This document shows, one piece after another, positions 2,243 to 23,971 of a stretch of DNA of 64,000 nt (position 1 is its first letter; every line of letters starts with the position of its first letter). The translations under genes and the position numbers were made by a program. The notes below the pieces were generated by a model that was given only the letters and a program-made list of their open reading frames with translations, searched no databases and had not been told where the DNA came from. Source of the stretch: Escherichia phage Delraymugoa; sequence record OR896825.1; one strand, given 5' to 3'.

Positions 2243-2542
2243 TTAACTGTTGTTTTTCTCGTAATGCTGAATGCGTGCTTGATCTGCTTCCGCTGGTGAT
2301 AGATTCCATGCAACCACTACAACTTCTGACGCATCGTCATCCGTTTCTGATACCCAATGATTGTGATTCATACAGTTATTTGCGATCGAGTGAGCAAATG
2401 ATTTCATCACTGGAGACGTATAATCATAGTAACGGATTTTCAGATTTTCATCAACGTACAAATAGATCGTATAAGGTTTATATTCAGTAACCAGTAACAG
2501 ACAGTTACGCAATTCTGGGAAAATCTTTTTAGTTAATTTCAT
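2243..2542 (-). CDS. hypothetical protein, HxHW family (start trimmed to MKLTKK)
   Basis: NHNHW motif; RBS GAGGAT before ATG at 2540-2542. Confidence 0.5.
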   Translation of the reverse strand: MKLTKKIFPELRNCLLLVTEYKPYTIYLYVDENLKIRYYDYTSPVMKSFAHSIANNCMNHNHWVSETDDDASEVVVVAWNLSPAEADQARIQHYEKNNS

Positions 2543-2543
2543 T

Positions 2544-2762
2544 TTATAATCCTCGGTCGCGGCTATAGTACACGGTACGCCATACAATTTCATGTTTCGT
2601 GTCGCTCCAGCACACGATCTCATTTACTCTTAAATCTTTGTTATCAACAAAAGATGAACATTGTGACGCTTCTTTCATCATTTTATCTGCTGTTTTCTCA
2701 TCAAATACAGCACAGATTTCTTTATACACCCGATAATCTTTGAATTGACTCTGAATACCCAT
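2544..2762 (-). CDS. small hypothetical protein, paralog of 2722..2979
   Basis: shared motif K.Y..I..V.....A.KMM..AS.C.SF with neighbour. Confidence 0.4.
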   Translation of the reverse strand: MGIQSQFKDYRVYKEICAVFDEKTADKMMKEASQCSSFVDNKDLRVNEIVCWSDTKHEIVWRTVYYSRDRGL

Positions 2763-2979
2763 AATTAACACCATTCCAACCAATTGTTTTTGAGAAAACG
2801 TTTATCCACTGTTGAGTGTAACATGTTTCTTTCCATGATACAATACGAGTAGAATAATGGTTTTTGTTTCCAGAAAAGGACGGGCATTTTGATGCATCTT
2901 CCATCATCTTTTCGGCGAACTCTGGTGCGTATACTCGCAGGATCTGTTGATATGCTTTGTATTCTTTAAATTTGCTCAT
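2722..2979 (-). CDS. small hypothetical protein, paralog of 2544..2762
   Basis: shared motif; RBS AAGGTAG upstream. Confidence 0.4.
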   Translation of the reverse strand: MSKFKEYKAYQQILRVYAPEFAEKMMEDASKCPSFSGNKNHYSTRIVSWKETCYTQQWINVFSKTIGWNGVNYGYSESIQRLSGV

Positions 2980-3244
2980 AATCATTCACTACCTTATCAG
3001 CTTCTTTTGTTGTTTTTACATCAACTGCGATAACTCGTAAAGGTTCGTCATGGTTCCACCAGTGGTCATGAATATCAGCTTGTGATTTATCACCAAAGGA
3101 ATCACGAATATCATTTTTACATTTATAGCTAATGTGACCTTCATAGTCAACATAAAGGTAATTATCGAAAATCGGCGTTTTTAAGATCATACCGAAAAAT
3201 CTTTCTTTGTGTGTCTTATCCAGCGTTGCAGTAATTCGCATCAT
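2966..3244 (-). CDS. hypothetical protein, HxHW-AVDV family
   Basis: HDHWW and VIAVDV motifs. Confidence 0.5.
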   Translation of the reverse strand: MMRITATLDKTHKERFFGMILKTPIFDNYLYVDYEGHISYKCKNDIRDSFGDKSQADIHDHWWNHDEPLRVIAVDVKTTKEADKVVNDYEQI

Positions 3245-3256
3245 AATATATTCCTC

Positions 3257-3436
3257 TTAGAAAGGGATGGTCATTTCTTGAGCTTGTACGTTCTCGTTAG
3301 GATTAAACTTCATCCAGCCGATATTGTCTACCAGCATATGCACATTTTTATCATATCCTACGTGGGTAGTCAATACTGTATGTGCTTTACCTTCAATGAT
3401 GAGTTCCATGTGCTTCTGAACTTCGATAGCTTTCAT
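3257..3436 (-). CDS. small hypothetical protein (59 aa), not in ORF track
   Basis: hand translation MKAIEVQKHMELIIEGKAHTVLTTHVGYDKNVHMLVDNIGWMKFNPNENVQAQEMTIPF; RBS and promoter upstream. Confidence 0.5.
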   Translation of the reverse strand: MKAIEVQKHMELIIEGKAHTVLTTHVGYDKNVHMLVDNIGWMKFNPNENVQAQEMTIPF

Positions 3437-3468
3437 TTTGATTCTCCGTTTGTTGTCTTGATGGGAGT

Positions 3469-3497
3469 ATCTTACTACTCCCTTTAATCATTGTCAA
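3469..3497 (-). promoter_or_regulatory. early promoter TTGACA-N17-TAAGAT with GGGAGTA...TACTCCC hairpin (PeSL)
   Basis: revcomp 3492-3497 TTGACA; hairpin gggagtatcttactactccc. Confidence 0.5.
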
Positions 3498-3500
3498 CTA

Positions 3501-3668
3501 TTATTTGTTAATTTCCGGTGCGTTGCTCGGATAGTAACCTTCTTTAACACCCAGATATTTTGCGACCATTCCGGTGATCTTCTGTGCTACTACGATATCG
3601 AATTTCAGGTAATCTTCACCGTGGTTTGCTACAATGTATGCTTCGCATTCTGCTTTAGTCTGGAACAT
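3501..3668 (-). CDS. small hypothetical protein (55 aa), paralog of 219..386 (start trimmed)
   Basis: MFQTKAECEAYIVANHGEDYLKFDIVVAQKITGMVAKYLGVKEGYYPSNAPEINK; ATG at 3666-3668 after conserved leader. Confidence 0.6.
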   Translation of the reverse strand: MFQTKAECEAYIVANHGEDYLKFDIVVAQKITGMVAKYLGVKEGYYPSNAPEINK

Positions 3669-3702
3669 TTTTGATTCTCCTATATCTCGTTGGTATGTGT
3701 GC

Positions 3703-3731
3703 ATTATAGGGGATCGGTGATCCCCTGTCAA
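3703..3731 (-). promoter_or_regulatory. early promoter TTGACA-N17-TATAAT with GGGGATCACCGATCCCC hairpin spacer (PeSL)
   Basis: revcomp 3726-3731 TTGACA; revcomp 3703-3708 TATAAT. Confidence 0.65.
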
Positions 3732-3738
3732 CAACTTT

Positions 3739-4047
3739 TTATTCTTCATCTTCATCTTTATCTTGATATGCGTACTTCATAAATTTGTCTGCTACTTTGT
3801 CCGCGTTTTCAGGTTCTACGTCTGACGCTAGGACAACAGCTAGTTCGGTTTTGTCGTTTCCATCATACCAATGATTATGAGTGTCGTTTTCTTCGATATA
3901 AAACGAATCATTTGGAGTTGTGCGACAATATACGTCTAAATTCCCATCGATATAAAAGATCCAATCCGAATACAAAATGATTGTTTTAGCAAGATTTTTA
4001 TTGCCTTCAACGAAAGGTTCGGCTACAAACAAATTAGTATGTTCCAT
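3739..4047 (-). CDS. hypothetical protein, HxHW-AVDV family (start trimmed to MEHTN)
   Basis: THNHW and ASDV motifs; RBS GAGGAAA before ATG 4045-4047. Confidence 0.5.
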   Translation of the reverse strand: MEHTNLFVAEPFVEGNKNLAKTIILYSDWIFYIDGNLDVYCRTTPNDSFYIEENDTHNHWYDGNDKTELAVVLASDVEPENADKVADKFMKYAYQDKDEDEE

Positions 4048-4063
4048 AGTAATTTCCTCAAAA

Positions 4064-4255
4064 TTATACAGCTTCGTAAACTTCCCAATGTCCAACACCA
4101 GCACGCTTAACGAAAAGGTTTTCTTTGATGTTATTCATAAACGTCTGGATGGATTTAATGCGATTTGAAGGTTTCCAGTCTTCGTTGGTATTGCGTCGAT
4201 ACATCATAACATTACCAGTTCGCTTATATTCAGCAACCATTTTAAGACCACACAT
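4064..4255 (-). CDS. small hypothetical protein (63 aa)
   Basis: ORF with RBS GAGGATAA. Confidence 0.4.
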   Translation of the reverse strand: MCGLKMVAEYKRTGNVMMYRRNTNEDWKPSNRIKSIQTFMNNIKENLFVKRAGVGHWEVYEAV

Positions 4256-4312
4256 AATATTATCCTCAATTTGTGGGAGAGTATTACCCCTCCCAATGAT
4301 TGTTATGTTATA

Positions 4313-4633
4313 TCACACAAAATGGCGTGTCAATGCTTCTTTTGCGGTTCCGCTAAGACTTTCGATCTCGCCTGGCATAACATCAACCGCCAGAACTTCT
4401 ACAACATCCTCGGACCCTAACCAGTGAGTATGGCCTTTGTAGAACTTGATAACCAGACTACCTTCCTCATCCCATTTAACGCTATCGCTAGCCCACCACA
4501 CATCACCGTCGATAAAGTTGATGTAAAGCACACTACGCCACATTGAATTAATTACTTTCAATACTGCGCCTTTCATCTCTTCCACGGTGTGGTCTTCCAT
4601 TTTGAAGACCTCGCCTACCTTAACTTTTGCCAT
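4313..4633 (-). CDS. hypothetical protein, HxHW-AVDV family
   Basis: GHTHW and LAVDV motifs. Confidence 0.5.
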   Translation of the reverse strand: MAKVKVGEVFKMEDHTVEEMKGAVLKVINSMWRSVLYINFIDGDVWWASDSVKWDEEGSLVIKFYKGHTHWLGSEDVVEVLAVDVMPGEIESLSGTAKEALTRHFV

Positions 4634-16551: not shown

Positions 16552-17391
16552 TTACAATCCATCGCAAGCATCAATATAAGCACTTACAAAACTTTCTATA
16601 AAAAGTGCTCCGACTTGAGGAACTATCGCATTGCCATAACCGCGCAATCGTCCCATTGTTGAGGATACCCCATCAGCCAACAAGGGAATCGTGGGTTCAA
16701 CAATTCGTTTTTTCCCGTCTCTGCATAGATACTCTGTTCCACTGTCCCAAAACCGTAATACATCTTCACTTGTTCTGATAAATTTCCCGGTGCTAGTGAT
16801 TTCCTCCCCGTTGCAAGTCTCGCTTCCATTCTCCGTTGCATTGCTTCCGGCGATCTTGCTGATATATTCGTTACAGTAGGTGTTTGCCAACTCGTTAATA
16901 GCCCCGAAGAAAAGTCTGTCCCGCTTGTGCGGCGCACCGACGATATCACATGATAATACCGCAGCCCCGACACTGTAACCTTCTCTTTCCAATTCCTCGT
17001 GAAGATCATCCAACCACCCCGTTTCGATAGCTTTTGCAACCTGTTCCCCAAAGAGCATTGGAGGTTTGCACGCTGACACGAGTTTAAGAAATGTCGGTGC
17101 AAGGTGTCTTTCGTCGAACTTTCCTTTTTGCTTTCCGGCTCTTGAAAATGGTTGACATGGTGGCGATCCAGTCCATAGTCTTGTTGTTTCTGGTACTCCA
17201 GCGAGTTGCAATGCTCTTGACCACCCCCCAATCCCCGCGAAGAAGTGACATTGTGTAAATCCTTCCAGATCTCTAGGGGTGACTTCTGTAATTGATCTTT
17301 CATCGACATACCCATAAGGAATTAATTTGTTTGCTATAAGTTCACGTAACCAATTAGCCGCGCCTTTATCCCACTCATTGTAATAATTCAT
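16552..17391 (-). CDS. C5-cytosine methyltransferase-like protein (compact, 279 aa)
   Basis: motif I FFAGIGG, motif IV GSPPCQPFSRAG, motif VI FGEQV, motif VIII KRDRLFF, motif X GYGNAIV. Confidence 0.65.
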   Translation of the reverse strand: MNYYNEWDKGAANWLRELIANKLIPYGYVDERSITEVTPRDLEGFTQCHFFAGIGGWSRALQLAGVPETTRLWTGSPPCQPFSRAGKQKGKFDERHLAPTFLKLVSACKPPMLFGEQVAKAIETGWLDDLHEELEREGYSVGAAVLSCDIVGAPHKRDRLFFGAINELANTYCNEYISKIAGSNATENGSETCNGEEITSTGKFIRTSEDVLRFWDSGTEYLCRDGKKRIVEPTIPLLADGVSSTMGRLRGYGNAIVPQVGALFIESFVSAYIDACDGL

Positions 17392-17446: not shown

Positions 17447-19690
17447 TTACAGCTTACAGGATGAACACTCGCTAGCGTCTTCCGTACCATCTGCACCGTC
17501 GCGAACGTTCGCATAATACAGGGTTTTCAGACCGTAATATTGAGCAAACAACATATCATCTAATACATCAGCAATATCGACTTTACCAGTCTTATAAGTG
17601 CTTGGATCGTAGGATGTGTTGGAACTAATCGCCTGATCTACAAACTTCTGCATGATCGCTGCCAGTGTCAGATAAGGCTTGTTACCTTTCTTGATCAGTG
17701 TCCAAAGCAGGTCAATAACATCAGCATTATTCTCTACGTTCGGAATAACCTGATTAAATTGCCCTTCTTTCGATCCTTTAACCGATACAATCCCGCGAGG
17801 CGGTTCAATACCGTTTGTGCTGTTAGATACCTGAGAAGATGACTCGCAAGGCATCAGCGCCGAAAGCGTACTGTTACGAATGCCATATTTTTTCAGGTCT
17901 TCGCGCAGTTCTTCCCAATCCATCTCATACACAGGATCAACCAGTTCATCTACTGTCTTTTTGTACCAGTCGATAGGAAGTTCACCGCGTCCATAACGTG
18001 TTTCATGCATCAGTTCGCAAGCACCCTTCTCTTTAGCCAGTTGCACACTAGCCTTAATCAGAGCATATTGCAAGCGTTCAAACGTTTTATGCGTAAACTC
18101 GTTAGCATCTTCATATGTGAAGAAATTATCTGCTAGATATGATGCAAAGTTAGTAACACCAACACCCAGAGAGCGACGTTTTTTGGCTGTCAGTGCTTGT
18201 TCTACAGGATAATCCTGATAATCTAACAGGTTGTCAAGTGCACGCACCATAACCATAGCAATGCGTTCTACTTCTTCCATATTTTCGATATCGAAATTAC
18301 CTAAAACATATGCTGCCAAAGTACATAGGCTAATTTCTGAATCATCACGACCCATCGGTTTTGTTGGCAGAGCAATTTCACAACACAGGTTAGATTGTTT
18401 AATCGGTGCTACATTACGAATAAACGCCCCGTGATTGTTCATGTTGTCTGTGAACGTTGGGTAGATTCGACCAGTGTTAAAACGTTCAATTGCCACCGCT
18501 AAAAACAGGTCTTCGGCTTTAACACGAGTTTTACGAACACTCGGATCTTTTTCCAGTTTTTCGTAAAGTTGGCGGAAACCTTCCTCATCTCGGAAGTATA
18601 GATCCCACAACAAGCCACCTGCAACATCTGGACTAAACAGAGTAATGTAATCCCGTTTAAGGAATCGCTCTACCATCAGGTTATTAATCTGTACGCCGTA
18701 GTCAAGATGGCGAATGCGGTTATCTTCCACGCCCTTATTGTTCTTTAACACAATCAGACTTTCAAACTCTAAATGCCACATTGGGTAATAGAGTGTCGCT
18801 GCCCCGCCACGAATACCGCCTTGTGAGCATGACTTAACGGCAGTCTGAAAATGTTTCCAGAATGGGATAACTCCAGTATGACGAACTTCACCATGCCCGA
18901 TCTTAGATCCTTCCGCGCGAATCATGCCAGCGTTGATACCGATACCAGCACGCTTGCTAATATACTTGATGATTGCATTTGCGGTTTCATTAATACCCTG
19001 CAATGAGTCATCACTTTCAATCACCACACACGAACTAAATTGGCGTGTTGGGGTACGCACACCTGCCATAATCGGAGTAGGCAGAGAGATTTGCTTATTC
19101 GCAACAGCATTATAAAAATCAATCACATGTTCAAGTCGATTTTCTGTCTCTTCTTGATGCAAGCACATACCGATCAACATATACGCAAATTGCGGTGTTT
19201 CGATGATTTTCTTAGTGCTGCGATCTTGAACAAGATATTTCTCTTTTAACTGCATCGCACCAGCATAGGTCATTTTAAAATCAAGTTTATGGTCGATGAA
19301 TTTCTCCAGATATTCCACTTCTTCACGGGAATACTTTTGCAGAATTTCGCGATCATATTTTCCGGTTGCAATATTACGCTCAATATGGCTGTAAAAATCA
19401 ATCGGTTGGAATTGACCGTATACTGATTTGCGAAGCGCGAACATTGCAAGGTTACTTGCTACATATTGATAATCGGGTGTTTCTACCGTGATGTTATCTG
19501 CGGCGACCTTAATCAATACTTTCTGGATATCATTGGTAGACATACCTTCTGTCAGAAGTGGTTCAACCATATCAAACAATTCATATGGATCAACGTTATG
19601 ACCTTCGGCTGCCGCTTCCAGAATTTTCATTACTTTTTCTTTTTCAAACGGAACAGTCAGACCGGAAGACTTAACAACATTTTTAATCAT
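17447..19690 (-). CDS. nrdA: ribonucleotide reductase large subunit
   Basis: 747 aa, catalytic motifs incl. NLCCEI and C-terminal CxxC tail. Confidence 0.95.
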   Translation of the reverse strand: MIKNVVKSSGLTVPFEKEKVMKILEAAAEGHNVDPYELFDMVEPLLTEGMSTNDIQKVLIKVAADNITVETPDYQYVASNLAMFALRKSVYGQFQPIDFYSHIERNIATGKYDREILQKYSREEVEYLEKFIDHKLDFKMTYAGAMQLKEKYLVQDRSTKKIIETPQFAYMLIGMCLHQEETENRLEHVIDFYNAVANKQISLPTPIMAGVRTPTRQFSSCVVIESDDSLQGINETANAIIKYISKRAGIGINAGMIRAEGSKIGHGEVRHTGVIPFWKHFQTAVKSCSQGGIRGGAATLYYPMWHLEFESLIVLKNNKGVEDNRIRHLDYGVQINNLMVERFLKRDYITLFSPDVAGGLLWDLYFRDEEGFRQLYEKLEKDPSVRKTRVKAEDLFLAVAIERFNTGRIYPTFTDNMNNHGAFIRNVAPIKQSNLCCEIALPTKPMGRDDSEISLCTLAAYVLGNFDIENMEEVERIAMVMVRALDNLLDYQDYPVEQALTAKKRRSLGVGVTNFASYLADNFFTYEDANEFTHKTFERLQYALIKASVQLAKEKGACELMHETRYGRGELPIDWYKKTVDELVDPVYEMDWEELREDLKKYGIRNSTLSALMPCESSSQVSNSTNGIEPPRGIVSVKGSKEGQFNQVIPNVENNADVIDLLWTLIKKGNKPYLTLAAIMQKFVDQAISSNTSYDPSTYKTGKVDIADVLDDMLFAQYYGLKTLYYANVRDGADGTEDASECSSCKL

Positions 19691-19737
19691 ATTACCTCAC
19701 TTTATATTTTAGCAGGAACAAGTTTATCCTCCATATT

Positions 19738-19753
19738 GGGGGCTTTCGCCCCC
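19738..19753. other. GC hairpin GGGGGC-tttc-GCCCCC between td and nrdA
   Basis: perfect 6-bp stem; T-run follows on plus strand only. Confidence 0.4.
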
Positions 19754-19758
19754 TTTGT

Positions 19759-20991
19759 TTATACTGCCATTTGAGCGGTGATTGCTGGATGGCTTTGATA
19801 GTTGTGAATTTTAAAGTCTTTCGGAGTCTTTGTCAATACCTCATCTAAAGATTTAAATTCCGGCAACTCAATCGTTGGTTTATCAAACGGAACACGGCTT
19901 AACTGTTCCATAACTTGATCAAAATGGTTTTTGTAAATGTGAGTATCTCCACCAGAGAAAATCAGTTCTCCTACCTCAAGATCACACATTTTCGCTATGA
20001 TGTGAGTTAACAGCGCATAGCTGGCGACGTTAAAGGGCAAGCCTAAAAAGCTGTCTACGCTTCGCTGAAACCACATACAAGACAGTTTACCTTCATTGAC
20101 GTAGAATTGCACGAAAGGATGACATACACCCAATACAGCATTATGTGTTCCTTGTACGTTCCATGAGTCAATAATGATCCGGCGATCCGTTGGATTGTTT
20201 TTAATTTGTTCAATCACGTTTTGTAACTGGTCTTCCCAAATCTTCGGGCGATAGACATATTCTTCATCGTCTTTAGTGCTCGATGTGTCTACGTCCATAC
20301 TAGCAAAGATCGTGGTATCTGGCGCTAAAATATCCCCGCCCAGATAATCACTATCAAGCAGATAACCGAAATAACCATCATCTACCCATTCCTGGAATCC
20401 CCACAAGCAATATGCATCATTAACAAAATTAGATTGAGTCTTCCAGTGGTCTGCTACTAAGAATTGATTATATTCAGAATCAAACTCTTCATAACGCATA
20501 CCACGCCAGATAGCACATAAACGGTCTTCTGTGTCGTTGGTTGGCGTAAAGTCTTCTACCCACGGGTGTTTAAATGTATGTGTATATTTGCTCTTAACGC
20601 GCTTAATTTTGATTTCACCATGTGGATGAATCGGTTTGCGTCGCCATGCCATACCATACATATTACCGACATTATAACCATTGAATCGCAAAGGATTCTT
20701 TTCTTTCATATCAAGACAGTTGCCGCGCCAAATATCAAAGGCTTCCTCGTCAAACTTGCCACGTGTAATTTCCTGTAAGCGACGACGGTCAAGTGATCCC
20801 TCCATAAACCATAGCAATTCGCCAATTACAGAGGCTGTAGCCATCTTTTTAGTGGTCAGTAAGGGGAAACCCTTGCTTAAGTCAATTCGCATTTCTGCAC
20901 CGAATTTAGAGAGCGTACCTACCCCCGTTCGGTCTTCACGAGGCCAACCATTATCAAGAACATCACGCAACAGTTTCAAATATTCTTTCAT
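19759..20991 (-). CDS. td: thymidylate synthase with ~120-aa internal insertion
   Basis: conserved CHPFVQFYV, LSCMWFQRSVD, FLGLPFN (Asn = dUMP specificity); 410 aa vs 264-286 typical. Confidence 0.9.
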   Translation of the reverse strand: MKEYLKLLRDVLDNGWPREDRTGVGTLSKFGAEMRIDLSKGFPLLTTKKMATASVIGELLWFMEGSLDRRRLQEITRGKFDEEAFDIWRGNCLDMKEKNPLRFNGYNVGNMYGMAWRRKPIHPHGEIKIKRVKSKYTHTFKHPWVEDFTPTNDTEDRLCAIWRGMRYEEFDSEYNQFLVADHWKTQSNFVNDAYCLWGFQEWVDDGYFGYLLDSDYLGGDILAPDTTIFASMDVDTSSTKDDEEYVYRPKIWEDQLQNVIEQIKNNPTDRRIIIDSWNVQGTHNAVLGVCHPFVQFYVNEGKLSCMWFQRSVDSFLGLPFNVASYALLTHIIAKMCDLEVGELIFSGGDTHIYKNHFDQVMEQLSRVPFDKPTIELPEFKSLDEVLTKTPKDFKIHNYQSHPAITAQMAV

Positions 20992-21232
20992 CCCACATCA
21001 CCTTTTTCTTATTGATTGCTTTCTTACGCAGTTTTGCTACTGTCTCGTCAATATCGATAAAGACAACTCCACGGTCGAATATAGTAGCAGGTCTTGAGAT
21101 ATCGCTATTTTCCTGTACTGGAAGCCATGATGCGCTCGCTTCATCATAGATATATTGTAAACCGTAATAATCTACGGCTACTGCGTAGTTTTCACTGGTA
21201 GCCGTCCATAATTGAATAATACCGACTTTCAT
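20963..21232 (-). CDS. hypothetical protein (89 aa from MKVGIIQ)
   Basis: ORF; start overlaps stop of upstream mini-ORF (TAATG). Confidence 0.4.
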   Translation of the reverse strand: MKVGIIQLWTATSENYAVAVDYYGLQYIYDEASASWLPVQENSDISRPATIFDRGVVFIDIDETVAKLRKKAINKKKVMWDERIFETVA

Positions 21233-21324
21233 TATTGTTCCCGTCCGCAATGTAAGCACCGACTACCAGCAAACATCAAAGATTCACCACAATGTTTGCA
21301 CTCATAATCTGTCAGAATTTTCAT
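21232..21324 (-). CDS. mini zinc-ribbon peptide (30 aa), not in ORF track
   Basis: hand translation MKILTDYECKHCGESLMFAGSRCLHCGREQ (CxxC-N10-CxxC); RBS AAGAAGG. Confidence 0.35.
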   Translation of the reverse strand: MKILTDYECKHCGESLMFAGSRCLHCGREQ

Positions 21325-21325
21325 G

Positions 21326-21895
21326 TTACGCCTTCTTACGTTCTAAAATTTGTTCGCTGATCAGGTAATTATCAAGGAAGTAATTATGTTCTTCTTTGGT
21401 TACAAAGTCAAAATATAATTCCTGAATCATTTCCTTAGAGATACCAACATCATATTCAAATGGATCGTTGATCCCTGAACGTTGAACATACGTTAACACA
21501 ATACGGTCCGCAAAGTCAACCGCTTTTTCAATCAGGGAAGGTCCGCCGATAACACTTACCAAACCTTGCGTTTTCTCTAGGACTTTTAACAGATCCTTTA
21601 ATTCAATTCCAGTATACACATTAGGCTGGTCGCCGTTTTTGGCTTTAGGTGTCGGCTTGCTGGCATCGGTACTAATAACCACATTAAGACGACCTTCCAG
21701 TGCTTTAGGCAGACTTTCAAAGGTATTACGTCCCATTACAACCGCAGCAAGTTCAACATCTCCCATAGTGCGCATTTTAAAGTTTTCCATGTCCTTTTTG
21801 ATTGGACGACCCCACGGTAAACCGCCTTTAAAACCAAAAGCCCAATTTTCATCTGACATTTTAGTGTCACCAATCGCAAATACACATTGAATCAT
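21326..21895 (-). CDS. frd: dihydrofolate reductase
   Basis: FGFKGGLPWGRP motif as T4 Frd; 189 aa; adjacent to td. Confidence 0.8.
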   Translation of the reverse strand: MIQCVFAIGDTKMSDENWAFGFKGGLPWGRPIKKDMENFKMRTMGDVELAAVVMGRNTFESLPKALEGRLNVVISTDASKPTPKAKNGDQPNVYTGIELKDLLKVLEKTQGLVSVIGGPSLIEKAVDFADRIVLTYVQRSGINDPFEYDVGISKEMIQELYFDFVTKEEHNYFLDNYLISEQILERKKA

Positions 21896-21910
21896 AATAT
21901 AAATCTCCCA

Positions 21911-22240
21911 TCAAATCAGTTTGAAATAGTTTTCGTTTACATTTTCTTCTGTGATTGCTGTCTTAAATTCTTGACCGTTATCCGGTGTGATGAAATAACG
22001 GTCAGAATAATCACGAAAACGTTTTAAGTGAGATACCCCAACATTAACACCATTTTCCCAAAAACGAAAGGTAATCATTTTTGGTTCATATCGATAGTCG
22101 CTGGTTAACACAGTACCATCCCCGCGACGGGCTTCATAAACCGTAATACATTCACGATTAGCGGCTTTAAGGCATTCTTCAATAGTGCCGCACGAGATAA
22201 TACTTACTTTTTCATCTACGATTTGTTCTACAGTCCACAT
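21911..22240 (-). CDS. hypothetical protein (109 aa, start trimmed to MWTVEQ)
   Basis: RBS GAGAGGA before ATG 22238-22240; track start lies in promoter -10. Confidence 0.45.
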   Translation of the reverse strand: MWTVEQIVDEKVSIISCGTIEECLKAANRECITVYEARRGDGTVLTSDYRYEPKMITFRFWENGVNVGVSHLKRFRDYSDRYFITPDNGQEFKTAITEENVNENYFKLI

Positions 22241-22271
22241 AATATAATCCTCTCTTTGTTTCGATATGTGC

Positions 22272-22299
22272 ATTATACACTATTGCGTTACGCTGTCAA
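22272..22299 (-). promoter_or_regulatory. early promoter TTGACA-N16-TATAAT
   Basis: revcomp 22294-22299 TTGACA; revcomp 22272-22277 TATAAT. Confidence 0.55.
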
Positions 22300-23916
22300 C
22301 TCTTTTTCAAAAGATTTTACGATATACATGATAGTGCTCAATTCAGACGGCGCTACTGTTTCTGTGTAGCCGTCCGGCATATCTTCTTTCGAGATATAGG
22401 AAGTTTTACCTTTCATTGCTTCCTTGATCTTGTTCTCTAATTCTAGGATCTTTTGACCGTCTTGTAAAGTCAATTCATAAAAGATCTCGTGGTCGAATTT
22501 GGAAAGGCGAGATTGACCTCCAATTCGTTCTTTTGTTGTTCTATTGGTTATTCCAAATTTAACGCCTACAAATATTTTTTCTTTTATTAGTTTTTGAATA
22601 TACAATACTCCTTTTTTTAAGGTATTATATCCATATTGTGCGCATTTAGGACAACGAGTTCCTTTCTGAAAGTTTGTTATTGTCGGTGTAAATTCATGGC
22701 CTTCACTACACACCAAATTTAACTTTGTAGACACACCGTTCCATTCTCCAATAAATCCATTAAATACGATATTTTCTTTTTCGAAAATTGGTTTAAGTCT
22801 TTCAAGATATTCTTCTTTTGATAATGCATAATTATTTGCACATTTAGGACAACGAGTTCCATTCTGAAAACTGGATATGATAGGAGTGAAATTGTGGCCT
22901 TCACAACACACCAAATCCAATTTTGTTACGTTACCTTTCCACTCACCAACGATTCCATTACAGGTTATATTTTCTTTAATAAATATCGGTGCTAATTTTT
23001 CGAAATATTCTTCCTTTGGAATCAATTTACGTTCTCTTAATTTAAGAGCTTTACATTTCGGACAGCGGCGACCTTGTTGAAAAACTGCTATGCTCGGGGT
23101 GTAATTGTGTTTTTCATTACACACTAAATTCAGCCTAGTTCTGCTACCTTTCCACTCACCAACGATTCCATTACAGGTTATATTTTCTTCAACGAAGATT
23201 GGTTTTAATCTTTTAAAATATTCTTCTTTTGATATTTTTCTACTGTTTCTCCAGTTGATAATACCGCAGGTCGAACACCTATTACCGGATTGAAAACCGT
23301 TTACAGTCGGTGTAAATTCATGGCCTTCACTACACAATAAATTCATTTTTGTTGTGCTTCCGTTCCATTCTCCAATAAATCCATTAAATACGATATTTTC
23401 TTTTTCGAAAATTGGTTTAAGTCTTTCAAGATATTCTTCTTTTGATAGTAATTTCAATTCTCTTAATTTAAGAGTTTTACATTTAGGACAACGACTTCCG
23501 ACCTGAAATGCTGTTATCGTCGGAGTAAATTCATGATCCTCACAACATGTTAAGTTTAGTTTTGTGTGCACGCCTTTCCATTCTCCGACGAATCCATTAA
23601 ACTTTATATTTTCCTCAATAAAGATTGGTTTAAGTTTTTCATAATATTCTTCTTTTGATAGGGCATAATTATTTGCGCATCTAGAGCATCGTTTACCTTT
23701 TTGAAAATCTGATATTCTTGGTGTAAATTCATGTCCTTCACAACAAACCAAACCCAATTTTGTTACGTTACCTTTCCACTCACCAACAAATCCATTAAAT
23801 ACGATATTTTCTTTTTCGAAAATTGGTTTAAGTCTTTCGTAATATTCCAATGGGCTAATCGAGTTATAATTTTTCTTAACCCATTCAATCTCATGCGCCT
23901 TACGTACCAACATCAT
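22288..23916 (-). CDS. tandem Cys/His (zinc-ribbon-like) repeat protein with possible GIY-YIG/T5orf172-like C-terminal domain (542 aa)
   Basis: six ~67-aa repeats KEEY.E.LKPIF.EENI.FNGFVGEWKG..TKL.L.C.EGHEFTP.I..FQ.G.RCPKC; C-terminus GVLYIQKL...FVGVKFGITNRTTKER; RBS GGAGGA before ATG 23914-23916. Confidence 0.6.
   Translation of the reverse strand: MMLVRKAHEIEWVKKNYNSISPLEYYERLKPIFEKENIVFNGFVGEWKGNVTKLGLVCCEGHEFTPRISDFQKGKRCSRCANNYALSKEEYYEKLKPIFIEENIKFNGFVGEWKGVHTKLNLTCCEDHEFTPTITAFQVGSRCPKCKTLKLRELKLLSKEEYLERLKPIFEKENIVFNGFIGEWNGSTTKMNLLCSEGHEFTPTVNGFQSGNRCSTCGIINWRNSRKISKEEYFKRLKPIFVEENITCNGIVGEWKGSRTRLNLVCNEKHNYTPSIAVFQQGRRCPKCKALKLRERKLIPKEEYFEKLAPIFIKENITCNGIVGEWKGNVTKLDLVCCEGHNFTPIISSFQNGTRCPKCANNYALSKEEYLERLKPIFEKENIVFNGFIGEWNGVSTKLNLVCSEGHEFTPTITNFQKGTRCPKCAQYGYNTLKKGVLYIQKLIKEKIFVGVKFGITNRTTKERIGGQSRLSKFDHEIFYELTLQDGQKILELENKIKEAMKGKTSYISKEDMPDGYTETVAPSELSTIMYIVKSFEKELTA
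22629..23862. repeat. six tandem ~200-bp coding repeats within 22288..23916
   Basis: near-identical DNA repeats (antisense track ORFs 22877..23080 and 23105..23293 share LPFHSPTIPLQVIFS). Confidence 0.7.
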
Positions 23917-23943
23917 TTTATCCTCCGTTGTTTCGATGTGTGC

Positions 23944-23971
23944 ATTATACATTACCACATAAGCATGTCAA
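23944..23971 (-). promoter_or_regulatory. early promoter TTGACA-N16-TATAAT driving the repeat-protein gene
   Basis: revcomp 23966-23971 TTGACA; revcomp 23944-23949 TATAAT. Confidence 0.55.

Follow-up and report, generated by a model that had tools for sequence, protein, structure and literature searches.

A probable decayed relic of a homing-endonuclease-like element within the thymidylate synthase of RB49-type phages

The td gene of Escherichia phage Delraymugoa (OR896825.1), which lies in the 64,000-nucleotide stretch of DNA analysed here (the window), encodes a ThyA-type thymidylate synthase (TS) of 410 amino acids (aa), which exceeds T4 Td by a net 124 aa and E. coli ThyA by 146 aa. The locus raises the question of what the in-frame insert in this enzyme is and how it came to reside there. 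The window Td is 99.5% identical to that of phage RB49, and we refer to the segment as the RB49 insert. In the reading that we consider probable, it is a fixed, decayed relic of an unspliced, in-frame homing-endonuclease-like element within a functional ThyA-type TS. A homing-endonuclease-like module would have invaded, in frame, the surface hairpin of TS between the YGxxWR and DQL helices; it would be translated as part of Td, be removed at neither the RNA nor the protein level, and project on a two-stranded beta stalk that leaves the TS fold undisturbed. The full form (190-280 aa, basic, with its signature residues kept) would spread between phage td genes by gene conversion, which would carry along approximately 100-260 nucleotides (nt) of flanking td sequence. 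In the Krischvirus/RB49 version, two of the three sub-parts of the module, (i) and (iii), would have been deleted, its RC / D-K-D / Y-S / C / N signature largely replaced, and its charge turned acidic.

The td gene and its inserted domain

The gene and its parts are located in the window as listed below, where the limits of the insert were set against the closest insert-less phage TS sequences (WRDWRG followed by VDQL) and are accurate to within 2 aa.

19759..20991, minus strand: td, from the list of open reading frames (ORFs); 410-aa ThyA-type TS plus stop codon, ATG start
20638..20991, minus strand: N-terminal TS core, aa 1-118; matches E. coli ThyA 1-82; DRTG at 20-23, E58, W88, Y112, WRR at 116-118
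20239..20637, minus strand: in-frame insert, aa 119-251, 133 aa; absent from insert-less TS
20596..20631, minus strand: stalk strand 1, IHPHGEIKIKRV, aa 121-132; AlphaFold2 strand at 118-130 in the full model and 4-14 in the insert-only model
20299..20535, minus strand: globular core of the insert, aa 153-231; helices 153-169, 181-193 and 199-204, strands 210-213 and 228-231
20467..20478, minus strand: SEYN, aa 172-175; 4-codon indel polymorphic in Krischvirus, in the lowest-confidence loop of the insert
20233..20259, minus strand: stalk strand 2, YVYRPKIWE, aa 245-253; AlphaFold2 strand 245-254, leading back to the TS core
19762..20238, minus strand: C-terminal catalytic TS core, aa 252-410; matches E. 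coli ThyA 110-264, 2e-47

The Pfam family PF00303 (Thymidylat_synt) matches the window Td in two stretches (1.1e-84; 284 bits against a curated cut-off of 24.3 bits). Per phmmer searches of the PDB, E. coli ThyA 1-82 aligns with Td aa 1-82 and ThyA 110-264 with aa 254-410, while T4 Td (1tis) 120-286 and L. casei TS 162-316 both align with aa 254-410, the extra residues of the L. casei enzyme thus also preceding the DQL helix. The C-terminal core carries RR at 270-271, C290-H291, QRSVD at 309-313, N321 and D349/H351/Y353, and the residues R21, R270-R271, C290-H291, R310-S311-D313, N321 and D349/H351/Y353 are invariant in a 37-sequence alignment. Because the catalytic residues are intact and the ratio of nonsynonymous to synonymous substitution rates (dN/dS) of the core is below 0.09, the RB49-type Td is presumably a canonical, active TS.

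A first-pass annotation, made by a model from the DNA sequence and its ORF translations, had placed a TS of 410 aa at 19759-20991 without giving a strand, and had described approximately 120 extra aa of Cys/Trp/Asp-rich sequence. The ORF is confirmed and lies on the minus strand, the estimate of the excess was about right against both T4 Td and E. coli ThyA, and the compositional description agrees with our counts, the 133 aa of the insert including 16 D, 9 E, 5 W, 9 Y and 2 C, for a net charge of -11 and an isoelectric point (pI) of 4.7. All of the motifs cited in that annotation were found, namely WRR (aa 116-118), DQL...NPTDRRIII (aa 254-274), CHPFVQFYV (aa 290-298), and FLGLPFNVASYALL within aa 309-327, with N321 as the dUMP-specifying Asn. 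Its proposed alignment to the T4, E. coli and L. casei enzymes places the extra sequence wholly between the YGxxWR and DQL helices (WRRKP on one side and DQLQ on the other), in a surface hairpin at approximately E. coli residues 101-109.

The whole protein was predicted by AlphaFold2 from the 37-sequence alignment with a mean predicted local distance difference test (pLDDT) score of 92.1 and a predicted template modeling (pTM) score of 0.91, and the fold of the insert was reproduced when the insert was modeled alone (pLDDT 92.5); all structures discussed in this work are predicted. The insert model consists of a two-stranded beta-stalk (aa 118-130 with 245-254) topped by a compact small alpha/beta domain, and nearly all of its residues score above 90, the exception being the indel-bearing loop, where the block at aa ~171-180 scores 74. 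The globular core contains the motifs LWGFQEWVD (20380-20406), LLDSDY (20344-20361) and APDTTIF (20305-20325). In the stalk, the P.PHG....R motif of strand 1 is common to nearly all insert-bearing TS, and the ..V.RP.I motif of strand 2 is conserved among them. As for whether the insert forms a separate domain, which had been suggested as a check, it is in the AlphaFold2 models a well-folded surface domain, confidently predicted and set apart on its stalk.

The same 406-410-aa Td was found at >=90% identity in 57 phage records, all of them Krischvirus-type genomes, which rules out chance or an assembly artefact as the source of the insert. The window Td is 100% identical in aa sequence to the Td of Shigella phage Sf20 and of Escherichia phages MIZ2/3/6. 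No second copy of the module was found in the window.

Relatives of the insert and movement of its long form

When the full-length Td was used as a query, approximately 25 TS proteins of 401-613 aa were retrieved, every one of which carries an insert at the same loop. Using the insert alone, tblastn retrieved the Td insert of Klebsiella jumbo phage KP13-7 (Td of 517 aa, 5e-12), a 477-aa protein of Vibrio phage D69 (3e-5) and, as a weak match, a free-standing 198-aa protein of Escherichia phage alia, and a word-index search with the insert alone gave no match. Long-form TS proteins are approximately 470-560 aa long, and their inserts of 190-280 aa contain three sub-parts: (i) a beta-rich N-terminal piece (...F..TGSY...KD.F.PSVEGVGYLG), (ii) a core (LY.IW.DM..R[CV]YNP...V.VC.RW.NF.NF..D...LWGFQE.VDSGY...LDKDYYG..YSP.TC.F...N), and (iii) a C-terminal piece (GFK.Y...F.S...L...RG...LP). 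The KP13-7 insert matches three PHROGs named as HNH endonucleases (phrog_2081, 1.7e-33; phrog_953, 1e-25; phrog_374, 2e-20), where PHROG names, like the GenBank function names used in this work, are annotations. The RB49 insert is placed by sequence comparison in this phage module family annotated as HNH endonucleases, transitively via the KP13-7 insert.

The D69 protein (D69 locus 2410-3843) is itself annotated as an HNH endonuclease but belongs to the TS family (PF00303, 1.9e-47), and its insert of 193 aa lies in the same loop as in the other enzymes. The core of this protein departs from the ThyA consensus (AFR in place of WR, LGSFYNIWSY and DAHTY), and it may therefore be a different pyrimidine-modifying enzyme. 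The module protein of phage alia (phrog_953, 8.5e-74; alia locus 2372-2968) is encoded directly downstream of a gene annotated as DNA polymerase part I, where polymerase-splitting homing endonuclease genes are typically located. A further protein, P0138 (264 aa), is an apparent insert with remnants of TS flanks (ending in ...YRPINPIEELVELY) and no TS core.

A profile search with the insert alignment, a check that the first-pass annotation had proposed for the insert alone, found a large homing-endonuclease-like family beyond this enzyme, with 13,090 cluster representatives (clusters defined at 50% identity) at E<=1e-3 and 4,192 at E<=1e-10. Among the best 147 of the 13,090 matches, approximately 58 are embedded in a TS, 63 stand alone as single-module proteins of 169-463 aa, and 26 carry the module in tandem. 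Free-standing forms are approximately 180 aa long, and tandem forms reach 739 aa with AP2-like repeats; Pfam accessory domains in the non-TS members are I-HmuI NUMOD-like in eight and AP2 in one. Neither the RB49 insert nor the long inserts nor 89 free-standing relatives matched a Pfam HNH-family domain, NCBIfam holds no core-domain model for the module, a PDB sequence search gave no match with a long insert or with a profile of the 37-sequence family, and Foldseek found no match to the insert in the PDB. Fold matches in BFVD comprise TS with inserts and proteins named as homing endonucleases, with family members down to E 5e-4. The near-invariant pattern of the family is W..M..RCY ... W..F..D ... 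DKD ... YS..TC ... N; it contains no His, and the catalytic His general base of canonical HNH endonucleases was not found in the near-invariant D-K-D motif. Per these comparisons, the module forms a large family without a database model, linked to the DNA-binding domains of homing endonucleases, and the HNH label is an annotation only. In PacI, a His-less beta-beta-alpha-metal site with Asp/Asn/Tyr can cut DNA (PMC4081073). The similarity score between the module and PacI (PDB 3m7k) is at the border of noise, there is no sequence similarity, and the module lacks the Cys4 zinc sites; the link is a lead only.

In at least three TS-core lineages inserts are present. The core of P0024 (552 aa) is 88.9% identical to that of the insert-less P0029 (276 aa), with syntenic contigs and a clean difference of one 276-codon block. 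Three forms of the td locus occur within Alcyoneusvirus: one bearing the insert (KP13-7, phiKp_21), one lacking it (K64-1, RaK2, Muenster), and one that is split (RCIP0023, W12-3). The genomes of insert-bearing td alleles are 91-99% identical to those of insert-less relatives in two jumbo-phage genera, and the nt identity between filled and empty loci is distributed as follows.

KP13-7 against K64-1, 2.45 kb upstream of td: 99.5%
KP13-7 against K64-1, 5' part of td (KP13-7 locus 2455-2700): 87%
KP13-7 against K64-1, td just before the insert (2701-2814): 56%
KP13-7 against K64-1, insert: not comparable
KP13-7 against K64-1, td just after the insert (3541-3800): 63.5%
KP13-7 against K64-1, 3' part of td (3801-4008): 76%
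KP13-7 against K64-1, 2.36 kb downstream of td: 99.0%
UE-S1 against 121Q (Asteriusvirus), first 245 nt of td: 96.7%
UE-S1 against 121Q, 115 nt before the insert: 69%
UE-S1 against 121Q, 259 nt after the insert: 55%
UE-S1 against 121Q, last 209 nt of td: 94.3%

The insert-bearing alleles of KP13-7 and UE-S1 are 83.5% identical to each other, with only 66% identity in the 2 kb upstream and 75% between the empty alleles. No accompanying extra nuclease gene was found in KP13-7 or UE-S1, where the genes next to td match those of the empty genomes. As read from aligned loci, these identity gradients, centred on the insert, are what homing-type gene conversion with co-conversion of the flanks would be expected to leave. 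Presence and absence in near-identical genomes together with co-converted flanks, the hallmark of a homing element, characterize the long form; the RB49 form, being fixed in Krischvirus, does not show them. Lateral transfer by recombination is proved by the mosaic td alleles, which do not prove that a nuclease is encoded by the insert; we infer that the mobility of the long form would be nuclease-driven.

In Klebsiella phage RCIP0023 (RCIP0023 locus 2454-4411), and also in W12-3, td is split after ...SCILTQR by approximately 1.08 kb containing an ORF annotated as intron-associated endonuclease 1, in genomes approximately 97% identical to KP13-7 and K64-1. This interruption appears to be a group I intron resembling that of T4 td, placed between QR and S. 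Because both the in-frame insert and the apparent intron occur there, td in Alcyoneusvirus is a hotspot for two unrelated mobile elements. The first gene of the jumbo-phage loci, one and the same conserved gene approximately 1.6-1.8 kb upstream of td, is annotated inconsistently, in different records as an HNH endonuclease, VWA-like, a Zn-dependent hydrolase or gp25-like, and is present both with and without the td insert.

More tentatively, the full-length td insert (the type found in KP13-7, UE-S1 and P0024) could be an autonomous homing element of a kind not yet described, a His-less, PacI-like beta-beta-alpha-metal nuclease residing as a permanent in-frame domain and cutting insert-less td, with the RB49 insert as its first recognised fossil; we regard this as a possibility worth entertaining, to which we give somewhat less than even credence. 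The nuclease would derive from the family of 13,000 clusters and be expressed from no intron, intein or gene of its own, and its homing cycle, lacking splicing, would end in a foldable stump, possibly exapted, and not in precise loss.

Reduction in the RB49 lineage and rival explanations

Only a reduced sub-part (ii) is kept in the RB49-type proteins (401-414 aa) and in a second group, P0009/P0013 (417-418 aa); the RB49 insert is without sub-parts (i) and (iii). In an alignment to a hidden Markov model (HMM) of the free-standing members, 21-25 of 23-29 near-invariant family residues are conserved in long TS inserts, compared with 11 of the 19 positions that can be aligned in the RB49 insert (those conserved being W, M, Y, Y, V, W, F, D, D, D and T), where the family K, Y, S, C and N are replaced by S, L, A, T and D and the RC motif is absent. 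With few exceptions, long inserts have a basic pI (8.2-9.6), and their net charge reaches +18. Intermediates also exist: D69, P0016 and P0023 are without sub-part (i), and P0020 is without the RCY segment. In the TS-core tree, the RB49-type proteins group with the long-form P0007/P0008, and P0009/P0013 group with KP13-7-like long forms, and therefore reduction happened at least twice; the TS-core and module trees are crude neighbor-joining distance trees on short alignments and bear coarse statements only. Both P0008 (long) and P0006 (the shortest, 401 aa) are found in T4-type frd-td-nrdA-nrdB contexts. Given the lost sub-parts and replaced residues, we infer a loss of function, such that the RB49 insert most likely no longer binds or cuts DNA.

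The reading frame is kept in all 57 Krischvirus records. Among six Krischvirus td genes, dN/dS by the Nei-Gojobori method, based on small counts, is 0.09-0.31 for the insert (0.65 in one pair), 0-0.085 for the N-terminal core and 0-0.083 for the C-terminal core, with dS comparable across the insert and both TS cores. The sole length change among the six is the SEYN indel, which is present in the window, RB49 and UPWr_E1 and absent in Phi1, G2494 and phiS. The kept frame and the purifying selection indicate that the insert is therefore translated and constrained, more loosely than the enzyme. The insert would persist because imprecise deletion would damage an essential dimeric enzyme, and this constraint would explain both the moderate purifying selection on the insert fold and the halting of decay at a foldable stump.

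Several observations weigh against the view of the RB49 insert as the decayed relic of a homing element. The direct match between the RB49 insert and phrog_2081 is insignificant (E 0.27), so the homology of the RB49 insert to endonuclease PHROGs rests on the intermediate long inserts. The mosaic td alleles do not prove nuclease-driven homing, and the metagenomic pair of filled and empty loci L010/L012 has no co-conversion gradient, its background already being only 81% identical. Finally, LWGFQEWVD and GGDI[LI]APDT.IF are conserved among short forms of only 50-60% overall identity, and these conserved motifs, together with a dN/dS well below 1, could mean a present function and not a passenger.

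The last of these points is taken up by the rival that we find to survive best, although we consider it rather unlikely: that the RB49-type insert has the same origin and was subsequently exapted, for example to regulate Td or to provide an acidic docking surface for partners in the T4-type dNTP-synthesis/replication complex. The fixation of the insert in all 57 Krischvirus genomes, the dN/dS range given above, the surface-type character of the two conserved motifs, the convergence of independent lineages on the same sub-part (ii), and the movement of the charge to -11 instead of random drift would all fit such a role. However, most T4-like phages manage with a Td that has no insert, and the insert is missing from the majority of TS matches in the phage collection; constraint on an inserted domain is expected anyway, as misfolding would poison an essential dimeric enzyme; and the 4-aa indel and higher dN point to relaxed constraint. 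As to the first-pass suggestion that the insert might prove common to all related phage enzymes and of known function, relatives do carry it, and no function for it has been demonstrated.

It is improbable that the insert represents an ancient domain specific to TS and passed on vertically, with an endonuclease likeness that reflects export from TS or annotation noise. In favour of this alternative, TS-embedded modules are nearest to each other in 73 of 76 cases in the module tree and form a few TS-specific clades, which suggests TS-specialised lineages, and most insert-bearing TS share the core signatures RFNG..GNMYG and NAVLG.CHP. Nevertheless, the free-standing and tandem forms far outnumber the TS forms and are more diverse, the inserts occur in at least three TS-core lineages, one with a core 89% identical to insert-less enzymes, and the clade signatures of KP13-7 and UE-S1 lie within the converted tract of otherwise near-identical genomes.

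We place still less weight on the RB49 insert being an active nucleic-acid-binding or DNA-cleaving homing module, which seems very unlikely. It does retain the core of the family fold, the acidic residues D212 and D214 stand at positions of the family D-K-D motif, and PacI provides a precedent for cutting without a His (PMC4081073). Against this are the loss of (i), (iii) and the RC motif, the changes K to S, Y to L, S to A, C to T and N to D at near-invariant positions, the net charge of -11, and the absence among Krischvirus genomes of empty-site relatives into which it could home.

Three further readings of the insert, as intron, intein or out-of-frame gene hidden within it, were rejected on Rfam, junction, Pfam, ORF and selection evidence. 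No Rfam intron matched at E<=1 across 19000-22000 of the window, which supports the first-pass statement that no intron interrupts td, and RB49 had no group I introns in published surveys (PMC1524935). The insert had no Pfam match even at E<=10, Hint included, and none in NCBIfam. Its junctions (WRRKP to IHPHG and RPKIWE to DQL) have no C/S/T nucleophile and no terminal HN; the first insert residue varies among relatives (I/C/S/Y), and none has the HN. In the AlphaFold2 model, the stalk is predicted to be continuous with the TS sheet, unlike a Hint fold. No hidden alternative-frame ORF was found in the insert, the longest in the window being 70 aa, antisense, and touching only the upstream edge of the insert; in the alternative frames of the KP13-7 insert, the longest ORF is 78 aa, antisense and at the edge. 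The earlier view that the segment is probably an inserted domain, neither intein nor intron, is borne out by the junctions, Pfam, Rfam, selection and AlphaFold2, and splicing in vivo would appear to be absent. That the segment is removed after transcription or translation, as a cryptic intein, an intron or by translational bypassing, is hardly credible, since the conserved site in a conserved nucleotide-metabolism gene, as with inteins and introns, and the apparent intron with a GIY-YIG-type endonuclease elsewhere in td of related jumbo phages are set against junctions with no C/S/T or HN, no Hint domain or Hint-like AlphaFold2 fold, no Rfam match, an open frame under codon-periodic selection, and an in-frame translation that is itself homologous to real proteins.

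Genomic setting, known systems and significance

In the window, td sits between nrdA (17447-19690, minus) and frd (21326-21895, minus), the T4-type frd-td-nrdA arrangement. A small ORF (20963-21259, minus; 98 aa from a GTG) lies between td and frd and overlaps the td start region by 29 nt; it corresponds to RB49p236, annotated in RB49 as an 89-aa hypothetical protein, and has no Pfam match. Elsewhere in the window, 22288-23958 (minus) encodes a 556-aa protein with six tandem repeats of approximately 70 aa matching the Pfam CapR homology domain (PF21817, 6 stretches, 3.3e-31), which also matches the treble-clef zinc finger DUF4379 and whose C-terminal ~110 aa are without assignment; it is probably the RB49 ORF once listed with a weak DUF723 match (PMC1524935). 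A 279-aa protein encoded at 16552-17391 (minus) has a partial C-5 cytosine DNA methylase match (PF00145, 3.6e-19, profile positions 64-166 of 324) with visible FAGIGG and PPCQPFS motifs, and is unusually short for a C5-methyltransferase. The ORF at 21911-22273 (120 aa) has no assignment.

ThyA tolerates extra sequence between residues ~83 and ~110 (E. coli numbering), as in the 50-aa small-domain insert of L. casei and the eukaryotic inserts. Those are short extensions of the small domain without non-TS homologues, whereas the td module is autonomous, with thousands of free-standing relatives. We found no description of this ThyA insert in the literature searched, the coverage of which was incomplete; T4-family genome and mobile-element papers were silent on the RB49 td insert, and the intein literature found concerns ThyX and not ThyA.

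The closest described precedent is ShiLan, in which a mycobacteriophage DNA methylase carries a homing insertion that is not spliced (Arsenault, Gosselin & Gogarten 2025, PMC11855218). As in ShiLan, the td insert is open in frame within a phage enzyme, has no intein or intron features, and has a predicted protruding structure sparing the host enzyme, and the long td inserts share with it a sporadic, homing-like distribution among close relatives. In ShiLan, however, the HNH endonuclease is hidden in another frame and the in-frame product is a featureless hairpin, whereas the td module is the in-frame product, that is, a domain of Td; its host gene serves essential nucleotide metabolism, and its RB49 copy is fixed and decayed.

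The td insert also resembles inteins with homing endonuclease domains, being in frame at a conserved enzyme site, with an endonuclease-related passenger and with its N- and C-termini brought together, and the cycle of invasion, fixation and endonuclease decay recalls that of mini-inteins. Unlike an intein, it has no Hint domain, junction nucleophiles or HN, and would stay in the mature protein; because it must stay there, decay would stop at a foldable stump and not at precise loss. With the T4 td group I intron and its I-TevI, and with free-standing homing endonuclease genes (seg/mob, "intronless homing"), it shares the targeting of td, flanking co-conversion, and presence or absence among near-identical phages. 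It differs from the T4 td intron in its position in the loop after WR and not in the active-site QRS region, and from that intron and the free-standing genes in having no ribozyme, separate ORF or recognisable GIY-YIG or HNH catalytic motif.

To our knowledge, homing endonuclease genes have been thought to survive in essential genes only within self-splicing introns or inteins, and otherwise between genes. On the practical side, the annotation of the D69 protein is corrected from HNH endonuclease to TS family with an insert, and a ThyA loop that tolerates domain insertions of 130-280 aa is useful for protein engineering. The work also draws attention to a family of phage proteins of very large size (>13,000 clusters at 50% identity) with no model in Pfam or NCBIfam. 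Together with ShiLan, the td locus points to another lifestyle for such elements, that of permanent in-frame residence in a tolerant surface loop of an enzyme. It would offer a natural series that runs from apparently mobile full-length forms (KP13-7, UE-S1) through intermediates (D69, P0016, P0020) to a fixed, decayed stump (RB49), a series that makes the fate of unspliceable selfish elements directly testable.

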